Counted from the first letter of the stretch, positions 22 to 52,794 are shown. The stretch is DNA of 56,950 bases from an uncultured Candidatus Saccharibacteria bacterium (GCA_964360535.1 CAYHXB010000001.1:1-56950), one strand, 5' to 3'. A program made the numbers and translations. Notes: generated by a model not told the origin, from the letters alone.

Positions 22-1545
22 ATGGAAAATTCACTTCCGCTAATAGCGGGCGGCGCGGTTTTAGGTTTATTAATAGGGTACTGGGCCAGGAACTTTCTGG
101 TTTCGAAACGGGCGAACTCAGTTGAAAAAAAGAGCAAGTTAGCTCTTGAAGAAGCGGAGCTGCAGGCCCGCAAAGTGGTTTTGGGCGCCGAAGAAAAGGC
201 GACTTCTATTTTGGCCGAAGTAAAAGAAGATGAGAAAAAAAGGCAATCCGAAATACGCGATATAGAAAAACGCTTGCTTCAACGAGAGGAATCTCTGGAC
301 AAAAAATTAAATTCCGTCGAAGAAGAAGAAAACAACCTTAAGAAAAAGGAAGAGTCGTTCAAGGAACGCGAGAATGAAATCGGCGAACTTAAGAAAAAAG
401 TTCAGACCGAATTCGAAAAATTAAGCGGCGTTACCAGGGAAGAAGCCAAAGAATCGCTTTTCCGCGAAGTAAAAGAACAAAGCAGGCAGGAACTGGCGGA
501 ATCGCTCCAGAAAATGGACCGCGAGCGGAGGGACGAAATAGAAAAGAAAGCGCTCGGCGTAATGACCACGGCGCTTCAGCGCTACGCGCGTTCGCACATT
601 TCGGAACTTACGACCACTGTTTTCCCGCTGGGCGACGAGGAATTCAAAGGCAAAATAATCGGGCGCGAAGGCAGAAACATCAGAGCGCTTGAGCGCGCCA
701 CCGGAGTGGAATTCGTAATTGACGAGACACCGGACAGCGTTGTTATTTCTTCATTCGACCCTTTCCGCAGGGAAGTTGCCCGCCTGGCGCTGGCCAAGCT
801 CGTAAAAGACGGCCGCATCCAGCCGGCAAAGATAGAGGAAAAAGTAGAGGAAGCCAAAGAAGAGCTCCAAAAGAGGGTTCTTGAAATAGGAGAGGAAGCC
901 GCCGCGGAAATCGGCGTCTATGATTTGCCGAAAGAAATTCTCCAGCTTCTGGGACGTTTGCATTTCAGGACAAGCTTCGGCCAGAACGTGCTGAATCACT
1001 CGCTGGAAATGGCGCATTTGGCCGGCATGATTGCCGCAGACCTTGGCCTTAATGTCCAGATAGCCAAAAGGGGAGCTCTTCTCCACGACATAGGCAAAGC
1101 CATCGACCACGAAGTCGAAGGAACACACGTGGACATCGGCAAGAAGCTTCTCAAGAAATATGATATAGACGAGCGTGTAATTGAGGCGATGCAGTCGCAC
1201 CATGACGAATATCCATACGCCACTCCGGAGGCATACGTAATTACTGCAGTCGACGCTTTGTCAGCGGCCAGGCCAGGCGCCAGGCGCGGCACTTTGGAGA
1301 ATTACGTCAAACGGCTCGGCGACTTGGAAAAAATTGCCGGAGAATTTCCGGGCGTCAAAAACGCCTATGCCATTTCGGCTGGCAGGGAACTCAGGGTCTT
1401 CGTGGTGCCTGAAAAGGTGGACGACTTCGGAGCGTTGGAAATGGCGCGCCAAATTGCCAACCGCATACAATCCGAGTTAAAATATCCCGGCGAGATTAAA
1501 GTCAACGTCATCCGCGAAATGCGCGCGGTGGAATACGCAAAGTAA
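22..1545 (+). CDS. rny: Ribonuclease Y (TM anchor, coiled coil, KH and HD domains)
   Basis: 507-aa ORF. It has an N-terminal hydrophobic helix, a Glu/Lys-rich coiled coil, a KH-like 'GKIIGREGRNIRALERATGVEFVID' and the HD motif 'LLHDIGKAIDHE'. Confidence 0.9.
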   Translation: MENSLPLIAGGAVLGLLIGYWARNFLVSKRANSVEKKSKLALEEAELQARKVVLGAEEKATSILAEVKEDEKKRQSEIRDIEKRLLQREESLDKKLNSVEEEENNLKKKEESFKERENEIGELKKKVQTEFEKLSGVTREEAKESLFREVKEQSRQELAESLQKMDRERRDEIEKKALGVMTTALQRYARSHISELTTTVFPLGDEEFKGKIIGREGRNIRALERATGVEFVIDETPDSVVISSFDPFRREVARLALAKLVKDGRIQPAKIEEKVEEAKEELQKRVLEIGEEAAAEIGVYDLPKEILQLLGRLHFRTSFGQNVLNHSLEMAHLAGMIAADLGLNVQIAKRGALLHDIGKAIDHEVEGTHVDIGKKLLKKYDIDERVIEAMQSHHDEYPYATPEAYVITAVDALSAARPGARRGTLENYVKRLGDLEKIAGEFPGVKNAYAISAGRELRVFVVPEKVDDFGALEMARQIANRIQSELKYPGEIKVNVIREMRAVEYAK

Positions 1546-1647: not shown

Positions 1648-3036
1648 ATGCTTCTTAAATTTTCCAAATTTTTTCTTTACGTTTCCGTATTCAGCGTCCT
1701 CATAGTAATGACTTCGACGTTTTTTCCGTTCATCGGCGGGAAAATGTATTTTTTCAGGGCAACAATCGAATTGTCGCTTATATTTCTTCTTTTCTGGTGG
1801 GGTTTTGAGGCTCCGGATGGCCATTTGTGGGCGCGTTGCAAGGAAATGTTCAAAAAGCCGCTCTTCGCGGCTGTTTCGGTTTTCGCCCTGGCTTTCACCC
1901 TGGCTTCGATTTTTGCTTTCGATTCGCACGCGGCCTTCTGGTCAAATTACGAGCGCGGTGAGGGTGGTTTCCAGATGCTTCATTTTTACGCTTTCTTTTT
2001 CCTTCTAGTTTTTCTTTTCAGGAATAAAAAGGATTGGGAAAGATTATTATGGACTTCCGTTTTTGCAGGCGTTGCCATGATACTTTACGGTGTCGGCGCA
2101 GCGGTTTTTGTGGTCAATCCGGACACCGGCGCTTTTTCAAATCCTTTCGGATTCGTCGGGCCGTACGCGACTCCTTCAAAGTTAGCGGCTTCTACTTTTT
2201 GGGGAAGGCTTTTTGATACTGAGCGTTTTCAGGGTTCGCTCGGTAACCCGGCTTACGTATCTCCATATCTTATTTTTTCCATTTTTTTCCTTTTATGGCT
2301 CTGGTTTTCCCAAAAAAGCAGGAATTTAGTCAAGAATATTTCCTACGGCGCGCTTAGTCTTTTCTTCATGGTATTTTTCTTTTTGGCGGCTACCAGGGGC
2401 GCGTTTGTTGGTCTGGCCGGCGCCGTGTTTGTTTTCCTGCTAGTTCTTGGCTTCGGACATATTAAAATAAGAAAATATGTTGGAGTCGGGATGGCCGTTT
2501 TGGCCATTATTCTAAGTTCACTTATTTATTATAGCCGCACTGATTTTGTAAAAAATCTGCCGGGTGGCCGCATGTTCGACCTTGGAGTGTCCGACCAGAC
2601 CTTCCAGACCAGACTTTGGACATGGAATTCGGCATGGCAGGGTTTTAAGGAGAAGCCGATTTTAGGGTGGGGCCCCGAGAATTTCTCAGCCGTTTTCGAC
2701 AAATATTTCGATACGAGGCACTACGTTCCTGGCAAAGGTTCAGAAACCTGGTTCGATTACGCGCATAGCGTCTTTTTTGACTATCTCGTTGAAACCGGAA
2801 TAATCGGATTCTTAAGTTTCCTCGGAATATTCGTGATTTTTTATCTGGAATGGTTTAGGAAACTGAAACATCAGAATCCGCTCTTTTGGGGACTTATGGC
2901 CGCGTTGCCTGTCAGTTATCTAATCCAGGGACTGGCGCTTTTCAACGTTTTTCCGATTTATATCAATTTATTTTTATTTCTGGCTTTCGCCTGCTACCAA
3001 CTTTATTATTCCGAACATAATTCTCCGCAATCATGA
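1648..3036 (+). CDS. O-antigen ligase/polymerase family (Wzy_C-type) polytopic membrane protein; paralog of 41557..42912
   Basis: 462-aa multi-TM ORF with 'LAATRGAFVGLAG' and 'ILGWGPENF' motifs. It shares long blocks with 41557..42912 ('RFQGSLGNP', 'GWGPENFS.VFDKYFDTR'). Confidence 0.75.
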   Translation: MLLKFSKFFLYVSVFSVLIVMTSTFFPFIGGKMYFFRATIELSLIFLLFWWGFEAPDGHLWARCKEMFKKPLFAAVSVFALAFTLASIFAFDSHAAFWSNYERGEGGFQMLHFYAFFFLLVFLFRNKKDWERLLWTSVFAGVAMILYGVGAAVFVVNPDTGAFSNPFGFVGPYATPSKLAASTFWGRLFDTERFQGSLGNPAYVSPYLIFSIFFLLWLWFSQKSRNLVKNISYGALSLFFMVFFFLAATRGAFVGLAGAVFVFLLVLGFGHIKIRKYVGVGMAVLAIILSSLIYYSRTDFVKNLPGGRMFDLGVSDQTFQTRLWTWNSAWQGFKEKPILGWGPENFSAVFDKYFDTRHYVPGKGSETWFDYAHSVFFDYLVETGIIGFLSFLGIFVIFYLEWFRKLKHQNPLFWGLMAALPVSYLIQGLALFNVFPIYINLFLFLAFACYQLYYSEHNSPQS

Positions 3037-3158
3037 ATCCCGTTAGAAACAACAATTCCATGAAATCAAAAAATATGTTTAATATTTCACACAAAAAGTC
3101 GTACACCACTCAAGCGGTTTATTCACGGTCGTCTTTGACGACCTGTTTCTAACGGGAT
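3037..3158 (+). repeat. Junction element copy 1: ~122 nt with 15-nt terminal inverted repeats (MITE-like or structured-RNA candidate)
   Basis: ATCCCGTTAGAAACA at 3037..3051 is the exact reverse complement of TGTTTCTAACGGGAT at 3144..3158. Internal hairpins lie at 3105..3118 and 3127..3143. Homologous copies lie at 36784..36906 and 44562..44683. Confidence 0.85.
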
Positions 3159-3786
3159 GAACAAGGACATAAAAAAAGCAGTTGCCGTTTCGATATCCAT
3201 TTTCCTGGCGCTGGTCGGTTATTATGGTTCTTATCTGCCGATGCAAAAGTCGATGCTTTTCATCACGGCCATGCAGAGGGCTGCCGGCATGAAAACCATA
3301 AACGACTTTGAGCAAAATTTTTCGATACCGCTTAATGTTCCTTCCCCGATAGGACAAGAAGAACTTGTGCGGAGCATGGCGAATACAATCGCCAACAGCT
3401 TCCAAAATGTTCCACAAAAAGAAGGCGTGGACGAATTGGTAAGATATGTGGAAAGTTACTTCAAACCTATAATTGACAGAAATAGGGGAATGAGTTTCGG
3501 CCAGGACATATACATTTTAGGGGCGATGAACGAATTCGCCTTCATTAAAACCGGAGACAAAAAATATCTGCAGGCAGCCGAGAATTATTTCAAGCGATCA
3601 GTTATTCTCGGTCCGAAACGCCCGCAGGGATTGTACGGTCTGCTTGATGTTTACAGAATGGAAGGAAACATAGAGGGATTTAAAATAACTGCCGAACAGA
3701 TTCTGTCGCAGTGGCCTGACGACGCGCGCACCAAGTCCGTTTATGACCAGTTCATGAAACTTGTTTCGCAGGATGCCAAGAAATAA
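3157..3786 (+). CDS. Hypothetical membrane-anchored protein with a TPR-like C-terminus; paralog of 42896..43489
   Basis: 209-aa ORF with one N-terminal TM helix. It shares 'SPIGQEE', '[11 protein letters not shown]' and 'WPDD' blocks with 42896..43489. Both copies follow a Wzy_C paralog. Confidence 0.6.
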
Positions 3787-34757: not shown

Positions 34758-35825
34758 ATGAAAATAATTTATACCGGCATACAATATTCTTTTTACAAGA
34801 AAAGCTACGGCCTTAGCTTTGAGCACAATAATTTTTATTTAAGCCTGAAGAACATGCCGGGAGTTGAAGTAATTTATCTGCCTTTTGACCGCATTCTTGA
34901 AGTCGGCAAAAAACGCTTCAACGAAGAACTTAAAGAAGCCATAGACCGCGAGCAGCCGGACCTGCTGTTTGTTTTCATGCTGACAGACGAGGTCAATATG
35001 GAACTCCTCGACGAAATAAGGAAAAAAGGAAAAATGAAAACGCTGGCCTGGTTTTCCGACGACACCTGGCGTTATTACAGCTATTCAAAGCAATGGGCCG
35101 CGCATTTTGACTGGACAGTTACAGTTTACGCCCAGCCATACCAATGGTATCTGAGAGACGGATTCAAAAACGTCATCTATTCGCAATGGGCGGCCAACGT
35201 AAAGCTTTACAGGCCTGCAAACACCAGCCGCAAAACGGACGTCAGTTTCATCGGTTCCTGGAATAAAGAACGTGGTCGGATAGTCGCCGACCTTGTCAAA
35301 AAAGGAGTTCCAGTTTCTTCATTCGGCGCCGGCTGGAAAACTGGACGGCTGAGCGAAAACGACATGATACGCCTTTTTTACGAAAGCAAAGTAAATCTCG
35401 GGATAAATTCTCCCAACGCGGACTTTTCAATCAAATCAATCGGCAAACTTTTTTTCAGGAGGAGCGTTGAAAAAATAGTTCCCGATTTTTGGCACTTCCC
35501 GAGAAATTTCCGCTCATGGCTTGTCGGCAGGAAAATTTCTCAGATAAAGGCGAGAATTTTCGAGATACCGGCCTGCGGCGGATTTCTGCTTACGGGAAAA
35601 GCCGACGATTTGGACAAATTTTTTGAAATAGGAAAAGAAATAGCAGTTTATGAAAAGCCGGAAGATATTCCGAAAATTGTCCGTTATTATCTTTCTCATA
35701 ATGAAGAAAGGGAGCGTATGGCCAAAGCCGGCTATGAACGCGTCATCCGCGATCACACTTACGAAAAAAGACTGGAAGAAATTTTCAAAAAAATCGGACT
35801 GGAAAATGCCCATGGAAATGAATAA
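34758..35825 (+). CDS. CgeB-family (DUF3880-type) glycosyltransferase-like protein
   Basis: 'RIFEIPACGGFLLTGKADDL' and 'AKAGYERVIRDHTYEKRLEEIF'. Confidence 0.6.
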   Translation: MKIIYTGIQYSFYKKSYGLSFEHNNFYLSLKNMPGVEVIYLPFDRILEVGKKRFNEELKEAIDREQPDLLFVFMLTDEVNMELLDEIRKKGKMKTLAWFSDDTWRYYSYSKQWAAHFDWTVTVYAQPYQWYLRDGFKNVIYSQWAANVKLYRPANTSRKTDVSFIGSWNKERGRIVADLVKKGVPVSSFGAGWKTGRLSENDMIRLFYESKVNLGINSPNADFSIKSIGKLFFRRSVEKIVPDFWHFPRNFRSWLVGRKISQIKARIFEIPACGGFLLTGKADDLDKFFEIGKEIAVYEKPEDIPKIVRYYLSHNEERERMAKAGYERVIRDHTYEKRLEEIFKKIGLENAHGNE

Positions 35826-36783
35826 AAAACCGCTAGTTTCAATTTTGATAACCGCATACAATGCCGAGAAATTCATAAAAACGGCGCTGGAGTCGGCTTT
35901 GAGCCAAACCTATCCGAATGTCGAAGTCGTTATCGTCAATGACGGTTCAACCGACGGCACGGCTGGCGTTATGAAGCCGTATCTTAAAGACAAAAAAATT
36001 ATTTATTTCGAACAGCCCAATGGCGGAATTTCCATAGCGAGAAACAAAGCCTTTGAATTGTCACGCGGCTACTATATTACTTTTCTGGATGCAGACGATT
36101 TTTATGCTCCGGATAAAATTGAAAAAGAAGCCGAATTTCTTGAATCAAGTCCTGATTACGGCGCCGTCTACTGCCGTGTTTTGAGTTTTTACGACGGAGT
36201 TCCCGAGACCATGTACGGATATGACCGGCCGATGCCGGAAGGAGACATTTTCCGCGAGCTCTTAAAACACCAGTTCATAAATCCCGGTTCCGTTATGATG
36301 CGGCGCGAAGTTTTCGCTTCCGAGAACGGATTCAATCCGGATTTCCGCGACGCCGAGGACTGGGATTTGTGGAGGCGCTTGGCTTATCGGGGCGTCAAGT
36401 TCGGTTTCGTGAACAAGCCGCTACATCACAACAGGATAAGCAGAGGAACCCTTTCCGGCTTTCATAATCAGGTGAAGATGAAGAAAATGAACCTGATAAG
36501 CTTTGAAAATCTTTTTTCCAGAATGACGGAAGAAGAAAGGGAAAAATATGGAGCAAAAAAAATCATCCGTCTGCTAAGAATAAAATTGGGCGTGGCGCAT
36601 CTGCTTCTTTCAGAAAAGAAACAGGCGTTGGCTCTTTTTAAAGAAGCTTCGCGCGGAAGTATTTGGGCGATTTTTTATCCGTTCATATTGTTTTTTGTTT
36701 TATTAATGCCCGGCGGCTTCATTTCCTGGACCATAAAGTTCTTTTGGCAACTCAAGCATAAGATGCTATTTTATAAGGAATGA
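35818..36783 (+). CDS. Glycosyltransferase family 2
   Basis: 'VSILITAYNAEKFI' and 'FLDADDF' (DxD). Alternative in-frame ATGs lie at 35806 and 35812. The C-terminus has TM helices. Confidence 0.8.
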   Translation: MNKKPLVSILITAYNAEKFIKTALESALSQTYPNVEVVIVNDGSTDGTAGVMKPYLKDKKIIYFEQPNGGISIARNKAFELSRGYYITFLDADDFYAPDKIEKEAEFLESSPDYGAVYCRVLSFYDGVPETMYGYDRPMPEGDIFRELLKHQFINPGSVMMRREVFASENGFNPDFRDAEDWDLWRRLAYRGVKFGFVNKPLHHNRISRGTLSGFHNQVKMKKMNLISFENLFSRMTEEEREKYGAKKIIRLLRIKLGVAHLLLSEKKQALALFKEASRGSIWAIFYPFILFFVLLMPGGFISWTIKFFWQLKHKMLFYKE

Positions 36784-36906
36784 ATCCCGTTAGAGACAAA
36801 CATTCAATGATTTGCAAAATATCCCATATATTAACTCTCAAAAAGTCGGTTGCCGTTCAAGCGGCTTATTTACGGTTGTCTAAAGACAACCTGTCTCTAA
36901 CGGGAT
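36784..36906 (+). repeat. Junction element copy 2
   Basis: TIRs ATCCCGTTAGAGACA (36784..36798) and TGTCTCTAACGGGAT (36892..36906). Hairpins at 36852..36865 and 36874..36891. Confidence 0.85.
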
Positions 36907-37963
36907 GAAAAGAGAGAAGATTTTAATAACCGGAGGAGCGGGATTTATCGGTTCTCACACGGCCGACGCGCTTTCAGAAAAGGGATATTCCGTAGTCATT
37001 CTGGACAATCTTCAGCCGCCGGCGCACAAGGGGCGTTGGCCGAAATACGTTTTGAACAAGGGATTCACGCTCATACGCGGAGATGTTCGCAAAAGAGAAG
37101 ATTTGCTCAAGGCGCTTAAGGGCGTTTCTTACGTTTATCATCTGGCGGCCTACCAGGACCAGCGGCCTGATTTCAGCAAATTCTTTCACACTAACACGGT
37201 CAGTTCCGCGATTATTTATGAATTGATCGTTGAAAAGAAGCTACCGGTCAAAAAGGTTATTCTGGCCAGCACGCAGTTTGCCTACGGCGACGGCGTTTAC
37301 CAGTGCAAACACAACGGAAAGTTTTTCTTCCCTGAGGTCAGGACCGAAAAACAATTCAAATCGAAAAAGTTCGACATACTTTGCAAACACGGCCAGCATG
37401 CAAAGTATTATCCGCTCCGCGAAGAACAGCAGCTGACGCCGACCAATGCATACGGCCTTTCTAAGGAAGCCATTGAGCGGCTGGCGCTCCGTTTCGGCAA
37501 AACCTATGGCATACCGACGACGCTTCTACGCTATTCAATAGTCCAGGGACCTAGGCAGTCGCCGCTTAATCTTTATTCCGGCGCCCTCCGCATATTCGTC
37601 ACGCAGGCACTTTCCGGAAAGCCGATTACCGTTTACGAAGACGGCAATCAGACGCGCGATTTCGTTAACATAAACGATGTCGTCGCGGCAAATCTGCTTG
37701 CCATGAAAAACAAAAAAACAAACTTCGAAATTTTCAATGTCGGAGGAGGAAAGGCCTTAAAAGTGGTTGATTTCGCGAAACTCGTCAAAAAAATAATTCC
37801 TACGAAGTCACAAATAGTAATCGGAGGATTCAGGAGAACCGACACACGCCACGCCGTATCAGATGTTTCAAAACTTAAAAAACTCGGCTGGAAGCCGAAA
37901 TTCACTCCCGAAAAATCCGTTAAGGATTACGCCGAGTGGTATCGGAGCGAATATGGCGCGTAA
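36905..37963 (+). CDS. NAD-dependent epimerase/dehydratase family SDR
   Basis: 'ILITGGAGFIGSHT', 'YGLSKEAIE' (YxxxK) and 'DGNQTRDFVNINDV'. Confidence 0.8.
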   Translation: MKREKILITGGAGFIGSHTADALSEKGYSVVILDNLQPPAHKGRWPKYVLNKGFTLIRGDVRKREDLLKALKGVSYVYHLAAYQDQRPDFSKFFHTNTVSSAIIYELIVEKKLPVKKVILASTQFAYGDGVYQCKHNGKFFFPEVRTEKQFKSKKFDILCKHGQHAKYYPLREEQQLTPTNAYGLSKEAIERLALRFGKTYGIPTTLLRYSIVQGPRQSPLNLYSGALRIFVTQALSGKPITVYEDGNQTRDFVNINDVVAANLLAMKNKKTNFEIFNVGGGKALKVVDFAKLVKKIIPTKSQIVIGGFRRTDTRHAVSDVSKLKKLGWKPKFTPEKSVKDYAEWYRSEYGA

Positions 37964-43531: not shown

Positions 43532-44551
43532 ATGATAGTAGTAAGAGCCCCGTTAAGAATAAGTTTTGTCGGAGGCGGAACGGATATCGGCGATTTTTAC
43601 CGCCAGCACCCGGGCCGCGTCATTTCCACGGCCATAGACAAGTTCGTCTACGTCGTCATAAACAGGACGCCTCTCATTCCGAAGGTGTCTGCGCGCTATT
43701 CCATTTCGGAAACTGTAGACAGACCTGACGACCTTCAGCATACCCGCATAAAAGCGGCTCTTTTGGATATGGGAATAGGAAAGGGAATAGAAATAGGTTC
43801 GTTTGCCAGTTTGCCGGCCAAGACCGGCCTTGGTTCGTCTTCGAGCTTTTCGGTAGCGCTTATGAAGGGATTGCACGCATTTAAAGGCAATAAACTGGAT
43901 AAGGGAGAAGCGGCCGAAGCGGCTTCCCGCCTTGAAATAGAACTTGTCGGTGAACCCATAGGCAAGCAGGACCAGTATGCGTCGGCTTTCGGAGGCCTTA
44001 ACGTCATCCAATTCAATGCGGACGAAAGCGTGGACGTTGACCCGGTTCTTTGGGACTACAAAAAACGCCTCGGTCTTGAAAACAGCATTTTGCTTTTTTA
44101 CACCGGTCTAACCAGATTAGCTTCAAGCGTTTTGACCGAGCAAAAGGCCAATATAGCTGTAAGCAATAAATTCGAAACTATGAAAGAGATGGCAAATTCC
44201 GTCCATGATTTCAGAGACGTTCTTCTTACTGGTGATTTTAAGAAGTTGGGAGAAATGCTTCATGAGGGCTGGCTCAAGAAAAAGACATTGGCTTCAAATG
44301 TTTCCAATTCTACAATTGATGATCTTTATAATGCCGGAATTAATGCCGGGGCTTGGGGCGGAAAAGTTCTTGGAGCGGGCGGAGGAGGATGCGTAATGTT
44401 CATTGGCCCGGAAGACAAAAAGCCGGTGATCCGCGAAGCCATTTCAAAAGTAGCCAAGGGAAAAAATCTAGATGAGTTCCGGGAAATTCCGATAAAATTC
44501 GTCCAGTCCGGAGCCGAGATAGTTTTCAATAGCGACGAAATAAGCAGATAA
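43532..44551 (+). CDS. hddA: GHMP kinase, D-glycero-alpha-D-manno-heptose 7-phosphate kinase-like
   Basis: 'RAPLRISFVGGGTD' and 'PAKTGLGSSSSFSVAL'. It lies in an operon with gmhA, gmhB and hddC. Confidence 0.75.
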   Translation: MIVVRAPLRISFVGGGTDIGDFYRQHPGRVISTAIDKFVYVVINRTPLIPKVSARYSISETVDRPDDLQHTRIKAALLDMGIGKGIEIGSFASLPAKTGLGSSSSFSVALMKGLHAFKGNKLDKGEAAEAASRLEIELVGEPIGKQDQYASAFGGLNVIQFNADESVDVDPVLWDYKKRLGLENSILLFYTGLTRLASSVLTEQKANIAVSNKFETMKEMANSVHDFRDVLLTGDFKKLGEMLHEGWLKKKTLASNVSNSTIDDLYNAGINAGAWGGKVLGAGGGGCVMFIGPEDKKPVIREAISKVAKGKNLDEFREIPIKFVQSGAEIVFNSDEISR

Positions 44552-44561
44552 TAAAAAATGA

Positions 44562-44683
44562 ATCCCGTAAGAAACAACAATTACATGGAATCCAAAAATA
44601 TGTTAAATATCACACATAAAAAGTCGTCCACCGCTCAAGCGGTTATTCACGATTGTCTAAAGACAATCTGTTTCTAGCGGGAT
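44562..44683 (+). repeat. Junction element copy 3
   Basis: TIRs ATCCCGTAAGAAACA (44562..44576) and TGTTTCTAGCGGGAT (44669..44683). Hairpins at 44630..44643 and 44651..44668. Confidence 0.85.
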
Positions 44684-45281
44684 GAAAGACTTTATCAACG
44701 AATTTTCGAAAAAATCTATAGTGGCTATAGAAAACCTACCACATGATGAAATAGCCAAGGCGCTTAATGTTTTGCAGGGGGTTTATGAAAACGATGGGCG
44801 TGTCTATGTCTTTGGAAATGGAGGCTCGTGGGCCATTGCTGGACACTGGGTGACGGATTTCAATAAAACAGTTTTCAGTAATCATCTTGATCAGCACAAC
44901 CGCCGTTTCATGGTTAGCCGTATTCCCGCAAGTGAAGAGGAATTAACCGCATGGGCGAACGATATTGGTTACGATATGGTATTCGCGGGGCCGTTGGAAA
45001 ACGTTCTTGAGGACGGTGATGTTGTTATTGCAATATCAAGCTCCGGCAATTCAAAAAATATTATCAATGCCGTAGAGGTAGCTAAAAAGCATAAAGTTCC
45101 CGTCATAGGGCTTTCTGGATTCGACGGCGGAAAACTTAACCAGCTTGCCGACATAAAAATACTCGTGCCGACTCCGAAAGGGGAATACGAAGTAGTGGAA
45201 AGCACGCATGACACGATGATGCACTTGATGACAAAGTACTTCAAGAATTATTTCGACCATTTAGTGGAGACGAAAAAATAA
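44682..45281 (+). CDS. gmhA: SIS-domain phosphoheptose isomerase
   Basis: 'VYVFGNGGSWAIAGH' and 'VVIAISSSGNSKNI'. Confidence 0.8.
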   Translation: MKDFINEFSKKSIVAIENLPHDEIAKALNVLQGVYENDGRVYVFGNGGSWAIAGHWVTDFNKTVFSNHLDQHNRRFMVSRIPASEEELTAWANDIGYDMVFAGPLENVLEDGDVVIAISSSGNSKNIINAVEVAKKHKVPVIGLSGFDGGKLNQLADIKILVPTPKGEYEVVESTHDTMMHLMTKYFKNYFDHLVETKK

Positions 45282-45282
45282 A

Positions 45283-45840
45283 ATGACAAGGGCGGTTTTT
45301 TTGGACCGTGACGGAACAATCAACACGGCGATTGAAAACATCCGGAGCGCAAATCAGTTGCGGATTTTGCCCGGCGCGGCCGCGGCTATAAAAAAACTAA
45401 ATCGCGCCGGTTTTCTGGCGATTGTAATCACCAATCAGCCGATAGTGGCGAGAGGATTAATTACGGAGAAAAAGTTGGATTTTATACACGCCGTGCTTGT
45501 AAAACGCCTCGGTAAAAATGGCGCAAAGCTCGATGCGATTTACTATTGTCCCCATCATCCCAATGCGAATCTGCAGAAATACCGAGTGCGGTGTCGGTGC
45601 AGGAAGCCGAACACAGGGTTGATAAAACAGGCGATAAAGCGTTTTCATATAAATTCAAAGAAAAGTTTTATGGTCGGCGACACGATGCCCGATATTGTGG
45701 TGGGTAAACGGGCGAAACTAAAAACAATTTTAGTAAAAACCGGAGGTTTCAAAAATCACAGGGGATACAATACAAGGCCGAATTTCGTCGTTAAAAATCT
45801 TCCCGAGGCGGTAAAAACAATTCTTCGCAATGGAAAATAA
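45283..45840 (+). CDS. gmhB: D-glycero-D-manno-heptose 1,7-bisphosphate phosphatase (HAD-IIIA)
   Basis: 'AVFLDRDGTIN', the Zn motif 'CPHHP...CRCRKP' and 'MVGDTMPDI'. Confidence 0.8.
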   Translation: MTRAVFLDRDGTINTAIENIRSANQLRILPGAAAAIKKLNRAGFLAIVITNQPIVARGLITEKKLDFIHAVLVKRLGKNGAKLDAIYYCPHHPNANLQKYRVRCRCRKPNTGLIKQAIKRFHINSKKSFMVGDTMPDIVVGKRAKLKTILVKTGGFKNHRGYNTRPNFVVKNLPEAVKTILRNGK

Positions 45841-46594
45841 AATAACACAGGCAGTTATACTCTCCGCGGGTTTCGGAACGCGCCTTAAACCGCTCACAGA
45901 TAACATTCCCAAAGTCATGGTGCCATTTTCCGGCAAACCGCTTCTTCAGTGGCACATTGAGCAATTAAAGAAACACGGCGTGGAAGAATTTTTCATAAAC
46001 CTCTTTTATTTGCCGGAAGTCGTAAAAAACTATTTCGGCGACGGTTCCAAATTCGGCGTCAAAATAAATTATTTTTTGGAACAGCCGGAGATACTCGGAA
46101 CTGCCGGAGGCATAAAAGATTTTTCCGCCAAAGGCGGATCCGCCTCGGGCGGAGATGGTTACTTGAAGAACAATTTCTTTGTAGTATACGGGGATGTTTT
46201 CAGTTTGCTTGATTATACAAAGATGGCGGAATCCTTTTTAAATAATAAAGATAATCCGATTGGCATGACTATCGTCGGATTCAACGACCATCCTCACGAT
46301 TCCGACCTGGTTCAGGTTGATAAGAACCTAAAATTCATAAAAGTATATCCTAAGCCGAATAAAGAACTTCCGGAGAACTGGCGGGCAATGCGGACAACTT
46401 TCGTATTTAATGAGCGGATTTTGAAATATATTCCAGAAAACAAGTATTACGAAATAGACCACCAGCTGCTGCCGGATATTCTGTCCAAAGGAGAAAAATT
46501 CTACGGCTATGAAACAACTGACTATTTGAAAGATATCGGAACTCCGGAACGCTACGCAGACGTACAGAAATATCTTTCGGAAAAGGGATTATAA
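45830..46594 (+). CDS. hddC: Heptose-1-phosphate nucleotidyltransferase-like (HddC-type)
   Basis: 'AVILSAGFGTRLKPLTDNIPKVMVPF' and 'GTAGGIKDF'. It contains a GC-rich palindromic segment at 46125..46152. Confidence 0.7.
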   Translation: MENKITQAVILSAGFGTRLKPLTDNIPKVMVPFSGKPLLQWHIEQLKKHGVEEFFINLFYLPEVVKNYFGDGSKFGVKINYFLEQPEILGTAGGIKDFSAKGGSASGGDGYLKNNFFVVYGDVFSLLDYTKMAESFLNNKDNPIGMTIVGFNDHPHDSDLVQVDKNLKFIKVYPKPNKELPENWRAMRTTFVFNERILKYIPENKYYEIDHQLLPDILSKGEKFYGYETTDYLKDIGTPERYADVQKYLSEKGL

Positions 46595-50484: not shown

Positions 50485-51408
50485 CTATTTCAAAGTTGAG
50501 ATAGTTTTCATTATTCCTTCCTCTAATTTTGTTTTTGGATGCCAGGCCAGCATTTTCCTGGCTTTATTGGCATGGAGGGCGGTTTTATAAACTTCTCCTT
50601 TGCGGTGCGGGGCGTAAACAGGCCCTGAACCGAACTGAAGCTCCTTGGCAATGGCGTCAAATATGCCCCTATCGCTGACTGGTTTGCCCCATCCCAGATT
50701 CAATATTTCATTCCTGCATTTTTTAAGCGCCGAAATATTGGCTTCGGTGATATCGCCGACATAAACATAATCGCGCATTTTTGTTCCGTCTCCGAATATA
50801 GTCGGGCGCTTGCCGGATTTCATCAGTCCGCCGAAGATAGCCACGACCCCGCCTTCGCCTTTGGGATTCTGGCGCGGTCCGTAAACGTTCGGATAGCGGA
50901 ATATCAGGTAATCAAAACCGAATTCGCGCGCGTAAAATTTTATAACTTCTTCTCCGAGCATTTTGGAAAATCCGTAGGGCGAAAGCGGAAGCAGTGGAGC
51001 GCTCTCGCTTACCGGTATTTTTTTCGGGCTTCCGTAAATGGCGCCACCGGTGGATGAAAAAATGAATTTCCTTTTTTTGCCGCGGCCATACTTGCCAAAA
51101 GAAACAAGCAGATTGACCGTTCCGATGACGTTCGTCTGAAAAGTGGAAATAGGATTTCTAATTGACTCAATAACCGAGGCAAGTGCCGCATGGTGATTGA
51201 CGACATCCGGCTTTTCAGCGCGGAAAATCCTATCGATATCTTTAAGATTATTTATATCGGCTTTGTAAAATTTGGCTTTCGGGTTGAGATTTTTTCTGAA
51301 GCCAGTAGAAAGATTGTCGATAACGATAACTTTGTGTCCGCCGCGAATATAGGAATCCACTATGTTGGAACCGATAAAACCTGCTCCGCCTGTTACTATA
51401 ATCTTCAT
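50485..51408 (-). CDS. UDP-glucose 4-epimerase-like SDR
   Basis: 'IIVTGGAGFIGSNI', 'YGFSKMLGE' and 'DGTKMRDYVYVGD'. Confidence 0.8.
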   Translation of the reverse strand: MKIIVTGGAGFIGSNIVDSYIRGGHKVIVIDNLSTGFRKNLNPKAKFYKADINNLKDIDRIFRAEKPDVVNHHAALASVIESIRNPISTFQTNVIGTVNLLVSFGKYGRGKKRKFIFSSTGGAIYGSPKKIPVSESAPLLPLSPYGFSKMLGEEVIKFYAREFGFDYLIFRYPNVYGPRQNPKGEGGVVAIFGGLMKSGKRPTIFGDGTKMRDYVYVGDITEANISALKKCRNEILNLGWGKPVSDRGIFDAIAKELQFGSGPVYAPHRKGEVYKTALHANKARKMLAWHPKTKLEEGIMKTISTLK

Positions 51409-51450: not shown

Positions 51451-52794
51451 TTATTTCTGGTTTATAAAAAACGATTTTAATGTTTTTAGAACGATAGTTA
51501 TGTCGAGAATAAACGAACGGTTTTTCAGGTAATAAATGTCGTATTTCAATTTTTCGGCTGCGTCTTCTTCGCTCGCGCCGTAGCGGTAGTTTACTTGCGC
51601 CCAGCCGGTAACCCCTGGTTTTATGAGATGTCTTACATCGTAGTGTGGTATTTTCCAGCGGAGAACCTTTATAAACTCGGGGCGTTCCGGCCTGGGGCCG
51701 ACTAAAGAAATTTCTCCTTTTATTATATTAATCAATTGGGGCAATTCGTCGAGATGTGTGTGCCTGAGAAAGCCACCAATTGCGGTCGTGCGCGGGTCGT
51801 TCTTTTCCGCCCATTTCGGTCCGCCTGATTCGGCGTCTATCTTCATAGTACGGAATTTATAAAGCACAAATTCTTTCCCGTTTTCTCCGACACGAACCTG
51901 TCTGTAAATTGCCGGGCCGGCCGAAGTTATTTTTACGAGAATCGCTATTAATATTTCGAGCGGCAGGAAAACGATGCCAAGCGCCAGTGCCAGCGCGAAT
52001 TCGGCACCTCTTTTAATGCTGCCATACGATTTTTCCTTTTCTACTATTTCGTCCAGGAACCATTCTTCGTTTATTTCATCCAATGGTATTTTATGAAAAA
52101 TTGTTTCATAGAAAGTCGGAATATCCACGATATCAATCCCGAGCATCAAAAGCCGGTAAAAAATTTTTGAGGCATCCGGTTCATTTTTGAAATAGCGCGG
52201 GATAACAATCAAATCCATGCCGTTATTCTTGATAAGATTTTCCCATTCAGAAATTTCTTTAAGGTAAGAAAAATCTTTCTTGTTTTTCAACCATACGGCA
52301 AGTTCATAACCGAGTTGCGGATTCTCTTTTATGAAATCCGAAATTTCTTCCGCTGAGTGGCTTGAGCCGACGAGCATTATTTTTGTCTTGGCGCTGATTG
52401 AAACGGTAATTCTGTTGAAAGAACGGCGCCAGATTATTTCGATAACAGCAAAGACTGCAAGAAATATAAGGAGATTAGTTTTCGGAGTTATCCCGAAGTA
52501 AGGTATCAGATAAAAGAAAAACATCGCGAGAACCGCGTTGACGGTAATCGCAAGCGACAGCGTTTTAAGGAATTCAATATTATTCCGGAGGCGTCTCGGG
52601 TCATAAAGTCCGGCCACGTAGAAAACTAAAAGCCACGGCATGAAAATCAAACTGAATGGTATCAGGTGCTGGTCGGTAAATTTCTCGAACTCTGAACCGT
52701 AGCGGATGACAAGCGCCAAAAATAAACTTAAGTAAAGCACCAGAACATCGCCAGCCAATATGAAGATATTCCTTATTTTATTCGCGGTTTTCAT
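51451..52794 (-). CDS. Polyprenyl-phosphate glycosyl-1-phosphate transferase (WbaP/sugar transferase family)
   Basis: 'DELPQLINIIKGEISLVGPRPERPEF' and 'KPGVTGWAQVN'. The N-terminus has TM helices. Confidence 0.85.
   Translation of the reverse strand: MKTANKIRNIFILAGDVLVLYLSLFLALVIRYGSEFEKFTDQHLIPFSLIFMPWLLVFYVAGLYDPRRLRNNIEFLKTLSLAITVNAVLAMFFFYLIPYFGITPKTNLLIFLAVFAVIEIIWRRSFNRITVSISAKTKIMLVGSSHSAEEISDFIKENPQLGYELAVWLKNKKDFSYLKEISEWENLIKNNGMDLIVIPRYFKNEPDASKIFYRLLMLGIDIVDIPTFYETIFHKIPLDEINEEWFLDEIVEKEKSYGSIKRGAEFALALALGIVFLPLEILIAILVKITSAGPAIYRQVRVGENGKEFVLYKFRTMKIDAESGGPKWAEKNDPRTTAIGGFLRHTHLDELPQLINIIKGEISLVGPRPERPEFIKVLRWKIPHYDVRHLIKPGVTGWAQVNYRYGASEEDAAEKLKYDIYYLKNRSFILDITIVLKTLKSFFINQK

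Follow-up and report, generated by a model that had tools for sequence, protein, structure and literature searches.

In a 56,950-nt stretch of DNA from an uncultured Candidatus Saccharibacteria bacterium (GCA_964360535.1, CAYHXB010000001.1:1-56950; at its full length, the window), three copies of a repeat of about 120 bases stand exactly on the start codons of genes. [quoted passage not shown] It is a previously undescribed MITE family of groundwater Patescibacteria with an unusual start-codon niche: its copies are bordered by a 4-bp duplication, have been mobile over the divergence of species, carry a subterminal hairpin conserved in structure, and are strongly biased in orientation. The element has the hallmarks of a MITE, being short and without a transposase gene (the sole open reading frame, ORF, is a mini-ORF of 39-42 codons in the window copies), with terminal inverted repeats and a duplication fixed at 4 bp. 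It is also dispersed and multicopy, with 130 unique copies at different genes and two pairs of orthologous sites that are filled in one contig (locus L087) and empty in the window.

The first-pass annotation of the window had described three copies flanked on both sides by ATGAA, which we checked position by position, with ORF-based gene calls. All pairs lie where they were placed (3033-3037 and 3157-3161, 36780-36784 and 36905-36909, 44558-44562 and 44682-44686). As described there, the left ATGAA supplies the TGA stop of the upstream gene in copies 1 and 2 (genes 1648-3036 and 35650-36783) and is unused in copy 3, where the hddA-like gene (43532-44551) ends in TAA, 6 nt before the copy, while the right ATGAA supplies the downstream ATG (genes start at 3157, 36905 and 44682). 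Since the Pfam domains of the downstream epimerase and SIS proteins begin at profile positions 1-9, this ATG is a real start. The copies align over about 125 nt with a mean column identity of 81%, and the sequence beyond ATGAA is unrelated. In each copy the terminal inverted repeat measures 14-15 bp. A 15-nt inverted repeat, ATCCCGTTAGARACA, is present at six places in the window, all of them belonging to these copies; for the internal motif AAAAAGTCG..CC..TCAAGCGG, 3 occurrences compare with an expectation of 0.05.

Copy 3 (T...A, 120 nt, + strand) occupies positions 44563..44682, as defined by a profile hit at 44564-44681 together with a covarying terminal T/A pair, and it ends at 44682 with the base that serves as the A in the start codon of the gmhA-like gene. 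The left duplication (TGAA, 44559..44562, +) makes up the original start codon together with A44558, and the right one (TGAA, 44683..44686, +) provides the TG that completes the rebuilt ATG (44682-44684). The left (TCCCGTAAGAAACA, 44563..44576, +) and right (TGTTTCTAGCGGGA, 44669..44682, +) terminal inverted repeats are the arms of a closing helix; the right repeat holds the TAG of the mini-ORF and is directly adjoined by a subterminal hairpin, P2 (GATTGTC-TAAA-GACAATC, 44651..44668, +). The mini-ORF (39 codons plus TAG, 44558..44677, +) begins at the duplicated original start codon. Copy 1 (3038..3157, +) has its TGAA duplications at 3034-3037 and 3158-3161, P2 at 3127-3143 and the mini-ORF at 3033-3152, and copy 2 (36785..36905, +) its duplications at 36781-36784 and 36906-36909, P2 at 36874-36891 and a mini-ORF (36780-36908, +) that ends in ATGA.

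A scan of genomes with the internal motif yielded two true copies, one in a "Patescibacteria group" metagenome-assembled genome and one in a "Candidatus Paceibacterota" one, together with five chance matches; both true copies have ATGAA flanks and an open mini-ORF. Matches were few because the interior is not conserved outside the subfamily of the window. A pattern consisting of the repeat cores alone (CCCGTNAGARACA, a gap of 78-108, TGTYTCTNNNGGG), including neither flank nor interior, detected at least 120 loci in metagenomes, most of them on contigs from groundwater and sediment. With a profile derived from well-oriented copies, 141 hits were obtained, each on a single strand, of which 136 were of full length and 130 unique. 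All counts out of 130 given below apply among the matches listed from the at least 120 loci, with intact repeats demanded by the pattern at both ends. Two scans of IMG/VR gave nothing or chance coding matches only, and Rfam gave no hit at the gathering threshold over the whole window and chance-level matches only (E >= 0.26) around two copies.

The 130 copies measure 112-140 nt (mode 120-123); the element, at about 117-126 nt, runs from T to A. Its terminal inverted repeats are 14 nt long (TCCCGTTAGARACA ... TGTYTCTAACGGGA), plus the covarying terminal T/A pair. The base beside CCCG and the base beside CGGG are always complementary (T/A in 127 copies, C/G in 2, G/C in 1) and are therefore part of the inverted repeat. 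Left and right flanks are exactly equal over 4 bp in 78/130 copies as against 6/130 over 5 bp, and flanks other than TGAA change jointly on both sides (TGGA, TGAG, TGAT, TGCA and TAAA; in reversed copies TCCA and TTCA). The target-site duplication suggested in the first-pass annotation is thus genuine, since its two sides covary, but it spans 4 bp rather than 5, and the alternative offered there, that ATGAA is part of the element, has to be abandoned. Nor are the flanks always ATGAA: duplications other than TGAA occur, and the spectrum (TGAA 61%, TGGA 16%, TGAG 7%, TGAC 5%) roughly mirrors the beginnings of genes in this genome. The right inverted repeat had also been said to include the AT of the downstream ATG; the A is indeed the terminal base of the element, whereas the T lies outside the repeat. 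The right ATG is a chimera of the terminal A of the element and the duplicated TG. It is kept in 115/130 copies, whereas the left ATG is decaying and retained in 81/130.

Head-to-tail tandem copies share a single TGAA or TGGA (L054 469, L080 8809/8931, L087 5399, L098 2124 and L021 4819/4905), as if a new copy inserted into the duplication of a resident one.

In 104 of the 130 copies, an ORF of 60 codons or more begins at the right ATG. Six further copies are reversed, with a minus-strand ORF starting at the opposite end, and 20, several of them at locus ends, have neither a forward nor a reversed start (among the 113 copies with enough flank: 90 forward, 6 reversed, 17 neither). The reading of the first-pass annotation, that the element targets start codons, is supported as regards its position. 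Two start codons in the window are empty sites of the element. One, at 52792..52794 (-), belongs to a gene whose orthologue in L087 (87% amino acid identity) has a copy exactly there; the other, at 51406..51408 (-), belongs to a gene whose L087 orthologue (90% amino acid identity) also carries a copy. The right ATG of both L087 copies aligns with the start codon of the element-free window orthologue, and the prediction that insertion leaves both neighbouring reading frames intact is borne out. For the window's own copies, a look-up of exact proteins in search of empty sites gave the same strain only, with the element present. A same-strand upstream ORF (at least 60 codons) ends within 60 nt of the left end in 87 copies, and 73 of these ORFs stop at -30 to +8; 20 of them use the duplicated TGA as their stop, and 12 a TAG that lies within the left repeat.

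One contig (L125) bears two back-to-back copies between divergent genes, at 778-896 (-) and 972-1091 (+), each forward to its own gene, with a -10-like box (TGATATAAT) between them. The one on the + strand is flanked by a duplication of 3 bp, and its 42-codon ORF, in a different phase, is still open and ends in ATGA.

Sibling elements of other lengths have the same termini and 4-bp duplications. A GC-rich family of 66 nt (CCCCGTTAGAAAT...ATTTCTAACGGGG), often arranged in tandem pairs, duplicates TCAA, TTGA or CCTG (L093 3537-3675, 4469-4610 and 6713-6778; L058 1933-1998; L101 7932-7997). These siblings reside in intergenic 3' or divergent regions, away from start codons; a shared transposase, if there is one, would therefore not itself demand start codons. 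Siblings with C/G termini rebuild GTG in place of ATG, as at the RNase HII gene of L018 (592-1281), where an 83-nt sibling (approximately 597-679) stands on the start codon. The left ATG of the latter is in frame and open across the sibling, and would add 29 codons (MNPVRN...) to RNase HII. Lone or widely spaced repeat halves in the loci, considered as traces of a parent insertion sequence (IS), proved to be sibling short elements or decayed copies.

Several observations weigh against the MITE interpretation. We infer mobilisation in trans, because neither the window nor about 0.8 Mb of fetched loci nor IMG/VR yielded an autonomous element, or a transposase, that carries such ends. The sample of copies consists of the matches listed only, and the pattern demanded that both repeats be intact. 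Of the ATGAA sites in the window, 186 lie within genes, 31 in intergenic regions and 22 at starts, the last belonging to 22 of its approximately 50 genes; a preference for ATGAA together with the loss of gene-disrupting insertions predicts about 42% of copies at starts, as against the approximately 85% observed, and so does not account for the start-codon association in full. Finally, a symmetric inverted-repeat transposon should insert both ways, so that an orientation of 104 forward to 6 reversed relative to the gene (17:1), as well as the covarying P2, go beyond transposition alone. Such a bias cannot arise from symmetric ends, and the asymmetry must therefore lie in the interior or in P2. 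A replication-strand bias is ruled out as its cause, as both DNA strands bear copies in L110 and in L125, and every one of these is oriented forward with respect to its own gene. An internal promoter was also rejected: no sigma-70-like consensus is present in the three window copies, and the interior differs between subfamilies.

If transcribed, the element would be highly structured. Each window copy folds into the closing helix (15-16 bp; -37 to -44 kcal/mol), with z = -5.6 to -6.9 relative to shuffles, on either strand. An alignment of 128 copies is composed of four parts, namely the conserved repeats, a variable, A/T-rich interior that is wholly different between subfamilies, a conserved ACGG, and P2. 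In these 128 copies the closing helix is 99% paired, and the partner of the T of the right ATG is the base that ends the left duplication (A-U in 110, G-U in 14). The helix thus extends one pair into the duplication, so that both the A and the U of the start codon are paired. P2, which is stacked directly on the right repeat and was absent from the search pattern, is 93% paired, with changes on both sides at 8/8 pairs, whereas slid controls are 32-45% paired. G-U and A-C mismatches number 26 vs 29 in P2 and 11 vs 6 in the closing helix, i.e. without strand bias, and the pairing constraint is therefore not assignable to the RNA of the + strand. Selection on this RNA, for which an asymmetry between G-U and A-C would have spoken, was set aside, no such asymmetry being found. 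The pattern fits a DNA-level requirement on master copies combined with random decay of single copies. P2 was also considered as an intrinsic terminator and rejected, since it is weakly terminator-like, was flagged only in TGTTTCT variants, and is followed by no real U-tract.

In one copy of L110 (11012-11149) the loop of P2 contains about 20 extra bases (CCTACCTGCTGGTAGGCAGGCCCA), which form their own hairpin extension.

The Shine-Dalgarno context of the host is relevant to how such an element might be tolerated. Motifs of this kind (GGAG/GAGG/AGGA/AAGG at -18..-4) precede 6 of 50 window gene starts, the same as at random positions (10%), and the regions upstream of gene starts are A/T-rich, which points to Shine-Dalgarno-independent initiation in this organism. 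As the host genes are without these motifs, accessibility of the start site is probably what matters. Among the 130 copies, none has a Shine-Dalgarno-like 4-mer upstream of the right ATG.

Taking the above into account, we propose the following mechanism. As the copies show, insertion makes a staggered 4-bp cut and thereby duplicates the target, in most cases TGAA within a gene start that reads ATGAA; a putative transposase acting in trans would mobilise the element. On the left side the duplicate retains the ATG that was there before and, where the junction is ATGA, also the TGA with which the upstream gene stops, the left repeat supplies a TAG in a second frame, and on the right side the terminal A of the element and the duplicated TG restore the start codon. 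Neither neighbouring gene is damaged, because the ends restore the start, keep the upstream stop and add this TAG; copies on start codons would persist in compact, Shine-Dalgarno-less genomes because stop and start codons are recreated. The mini-ORF follows automatically once a live start codon has been duplicated onto the element. It reaches the stop of the right repeat in some subfamilies, that of the window included, and there could pass ribosomes on: a ribosome coming from the left ATG, or standing at the upstream stop, would open the left arm and so free the right arm and the AUG. In its layout the right repeat stops two frames, and in 124/130 copies the gene's own frame, followed inwards from the right end, meets a stop within the element. 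Both the 104:6 bias and the rarity of in-frame read-through into the gene suggest selection on how the transcribed element is read. It is possible, though we advance it tentatively, that a transposon lineage has specialised on the start codon in streamlined, Shine-Dalgarno-less CPR genomes, its ends recreating stop and start codons and its orientation, hairpin and frames being selected for the passage of ribosomes; it would constitute a mobile, translation-compatible junction that may impose coupling.

The best surviving alternative, which we nevertheless regard as rather unlikely, is that the repeat is an RNA device selected by the host, in which a structured junction ties translation of the downstream gene to upstream translation or to processing (e.g. 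at an RNase III site). Much of the anatomy is in keeping with it. The long and stable closing helix takes in two bases of the AUG, its A and its U; the stops of most upstream genes fall within its left arm or shortly ahead of it, and the orientation follows the gene rather than the DNA strand (as in L110 and L125); moreover, the structure of P2 is kept in every subfamily and the frame of the gene is almost always closed. However, the helix mismatches show no strand asymmetry and fit decay of DNA copies or a DNA-level constraint, the interior is not conserved between subfamilies, there is no internal promoter consensus, P2 is a poor terminator, and the presence or absence of the element in close relatives shows that the genes work without it.

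The first-pass annotation favoured a different role for the mini-ORF. It described the frame as always open and proposed that its translation would melt the helix, in a built-in termination-reinitiation relay to the downstream start; taken as a general mechanism, such a relay would be what makes the insertions viable. Its description of the window is accurate: the mini-ORFs of 39, 42 and 39 codons translate into the peptides given, they stop at TAA 3150-3152, at TGA 36906-36908 overlapping the ATG, and at TAG 44675-44677, and the alignment confirms the -1/+1 pair of indels by which copies 1 and 3 differ. In the family at large, the left ATG is present in 81/130 copies, of which 42 have a spanning mini-ORF, 22 reach a stop in the first 12 codons (in 11 cases at codon 8, GACAACTAA) and 17 stop mid-way. 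Thus, the frame is not always open, and early in-frame stops, which had been named beforehand as evidence against the idea, do occur; nor do these counts describe a conserved upstream ORF or leader peptide. Whole active subfamilies have their stop at codon 7-13, and among the 20 youngest copies (a near-identical relative at another site being taken as a sign of recent activity) 5 combine the ATG with a spanning ORF. Open mini-ORFs are not enriched where a relay would be needed most, i.e. in copies without a nearby upstream ORF end (10/37 vs 25/61 with one), and the peptide is conserved no further than the residues encoded by the repeats.

Some features do speak for such a relay. The left ATG is the original start of the gene and should be translated, and host genes without Shine-Dalgarno motifs should be sensitive to a helix over the AUG. 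Among spanning copies (41 counted), 24 stop at the TAA of the right repeat, 4 nt before the ATG, and 17 at an ATGA overlap. The interior is open in the mini-ORF frame in 57/130 copies (44%), as compared with about 11% of shuffles and 9-32/130 in the five other frames, and openness tracks retention of the left ATG (42/81 vs 15/49, p = 0.03). Where the distance between the two ATGs is divisible by three and the mini-ORF would thus be fused in frame to the gene, the frame is open in 1/30 copies, against 56/100 otherwise (p = 5e-8; 1e-6 to 1e-3 when counted per cluster). We regard this pattern as suggestive, because open master copies together with frameshifts could yield part of it. Translation of the mini-ORF frame may therefore be visible to selection in some subfamilies, including that of the window. 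Since equally active subfamilies stop after 7-13 codons, the mini-ORF is a tolerated or optional trait, and the family does not depend on it as its mechanism. The translational relay fails as a general explanation, given the early stops, the lost ATGs (49/130 copies, with internal stops in 39 of the other 81) and the missing enrichment, and we judge it improbable as the explanation of the repeats; within the subfamily of the window, a relay through the spanning mini-ORF is plausible.

Single-strand transposition of the IS200/IS605 type, PATE-like, or another target-guided process could in principle fix orientation by a short target and a recognised hairpin. It would agree with a structure-conserved hairpin about 14 nt from the right end, with a strong orientation bias relative to an asymmetric target, and with equally frequent G-T and A-C mismatches. 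IS200/IS605 elements are not known to duplicate their target or to bear terminal inverted repeats, and PATEs have similar subterminal hairpins at both ends. The element described here has a true duplication with covarying flanks, 14-bp near-perfect terminal repeats and a hairpin at the right end only, without a match on the left, so that derivation as a PATE of IS200/IS605 was rejected on anatomy. In addition, the six reversed copies also lie on start codons, those of the other strand, which points to selection on position and not to a strand-fixed target; we therefore hold such a route to be very improbable.

Hardly any credence is due to the idea that the mini-ORF encodes a genuine small protein and that the repeat is a duplicated gene. 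The ORF is open in the three window copies and in five relatives found early, and that of copy 3 (44558-44677) is present in a public protein collection as a called protein of 39 aa (P0001), but a search with five mini-ORF peptides found three other called peptides, from copies with the same ends and different interiors (one of the three without a contig on record), and only 4 such proteins are called among 5.8 billion; conservation of the peptide is confined to the part encoded by the inverted repeat, stops and frameshifting indels abound, and the survey of the family already contradicts the idea.

Compared with known systems, the element fits the structural description of a MITE in everything but a parent IS, none having been found in the sequences searched. 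Like the bacterial MITEs ERIC, RUP, Nezha and MITEAba12, the element is about 120 nt long, has terminal inverted repeats and a duplication and no transposase gene, exists in many dispersed copies that are present or absent between relatives, and would form a long hairpin if transcribed. It differs from other bacterial MITEs in its host clade, Patescibacteria, in standing exactly on start codons, in rebuilding the ATG with its terminal base, in its 17:1 orientation, and in its covarying subterminal hairpin. In the literature and MITE reviews searched, neither a start-codon-targeting MITE nor a MITE of Patescibacteria is mentioned. ERIC itself is not matched by sequence or anatomy, and REP/BIME was rejected on anatomy. 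Integron attC sites contain RYYYAAC ... GTTRRRY core sites, in that order, after the ORF of a cassette; they were ruled out, since GTTAGAG on the left and CTCTAAC on the right are in the opposite order and the flanking genes are co-directional housekeeping genes.

By analogy, the Correia/NEMIS elements of Neisseria may be regarded as the nearest functional counterpart, and REP2 as the nearest in position. Correia elements have 26-bp repeats whose sequence is unrelated to that of the present ends, a TA duplication and a site for integration host factor, and their helix is cut by RNase III, which alters the fate of the mRNA. They resemble the present element as MITEs of 100-160 bp that lie 5' of genes, are co-transcribed and form a long helix; functional promoters are also noted for them in a MITE review. 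The ends TCCCGTTAGARACA, the 4-bp duplication beginning with TG, the lack of a promoter consensus in the window copies and the position on the start codon itself set our element apart. REP2 of Neisseria and IR-A/IR-B of Borrelia are dispersed repeats of 120-180 bp just upstream of genes that supply an ATG fused to the downstream ORF; repeats of this type have internal stem-loops and translated open frames, and REP2 has no terminal inverted repeats and brings its own promoter and ribosome-binding site (Delihas 2011, PMC3184786). In contrast, the element found here has inverted repeats and a duplication, supplies only the A of the ATG, and carries neither promoter nor Shine-Dalgarno motif. Rickettsia palindromic elements (RPEs) are mobile palindromic repeats that survive in gene-dense genomes through compatibility with translation (PMC10969869). 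RPEs insert in frame within coding regions and join the protein, whereas our element stays outside it, with the frame of the gene closed; the sibling at the RNase HII gene of L018, resembling an in-frame N-terminal extension, is an RPE-like exception. In coupling of the MS2 coat/replicase type, and at operon junctions with ATGA overlap, a sequestered start is unmasked. The likeness consists in an AUG sequestered by a helix, the opposite strand of which is covered by the terminating or elongating upstream ribosome, and in stops 4 nt before the start or overlapping it; the difference is that here the helix would come by way of a mobile element, and the putative coupling would be dispensable in many copies.

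All three window copies reside within operons for cell-envelope sugars (1648-3786, 35650-37963 and 43532-46594). The genes beside them encode O-antigen ligase-like, GT2 glycosyltransferase, NAD epimerase and GHMP heptose kinase proteins, as well as a SIS isomerase, a HAD phosphatase and a nucleotidyltransferase.

The genomes of Patescibacteria are tiny and densely packed with genes, and are thought to be poor in mobile elements. We find one MITE superfamily in well over 100 contigs from groundwater and sediment, at about one copy per 10-20 kb. Its copies give rise to spurious gene calls of 39-42 codons and can mislead the annotation of start codons in CPR genomes. The constraints on its orientation and frame provide a handle, from sequence only, on translation start and coupling in uncultured, Shine-Dalgarno-less organisms. 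The family is a natural example of a transposon that avoids harm by design at the level of codons, landing on start codons and rebuilding them.

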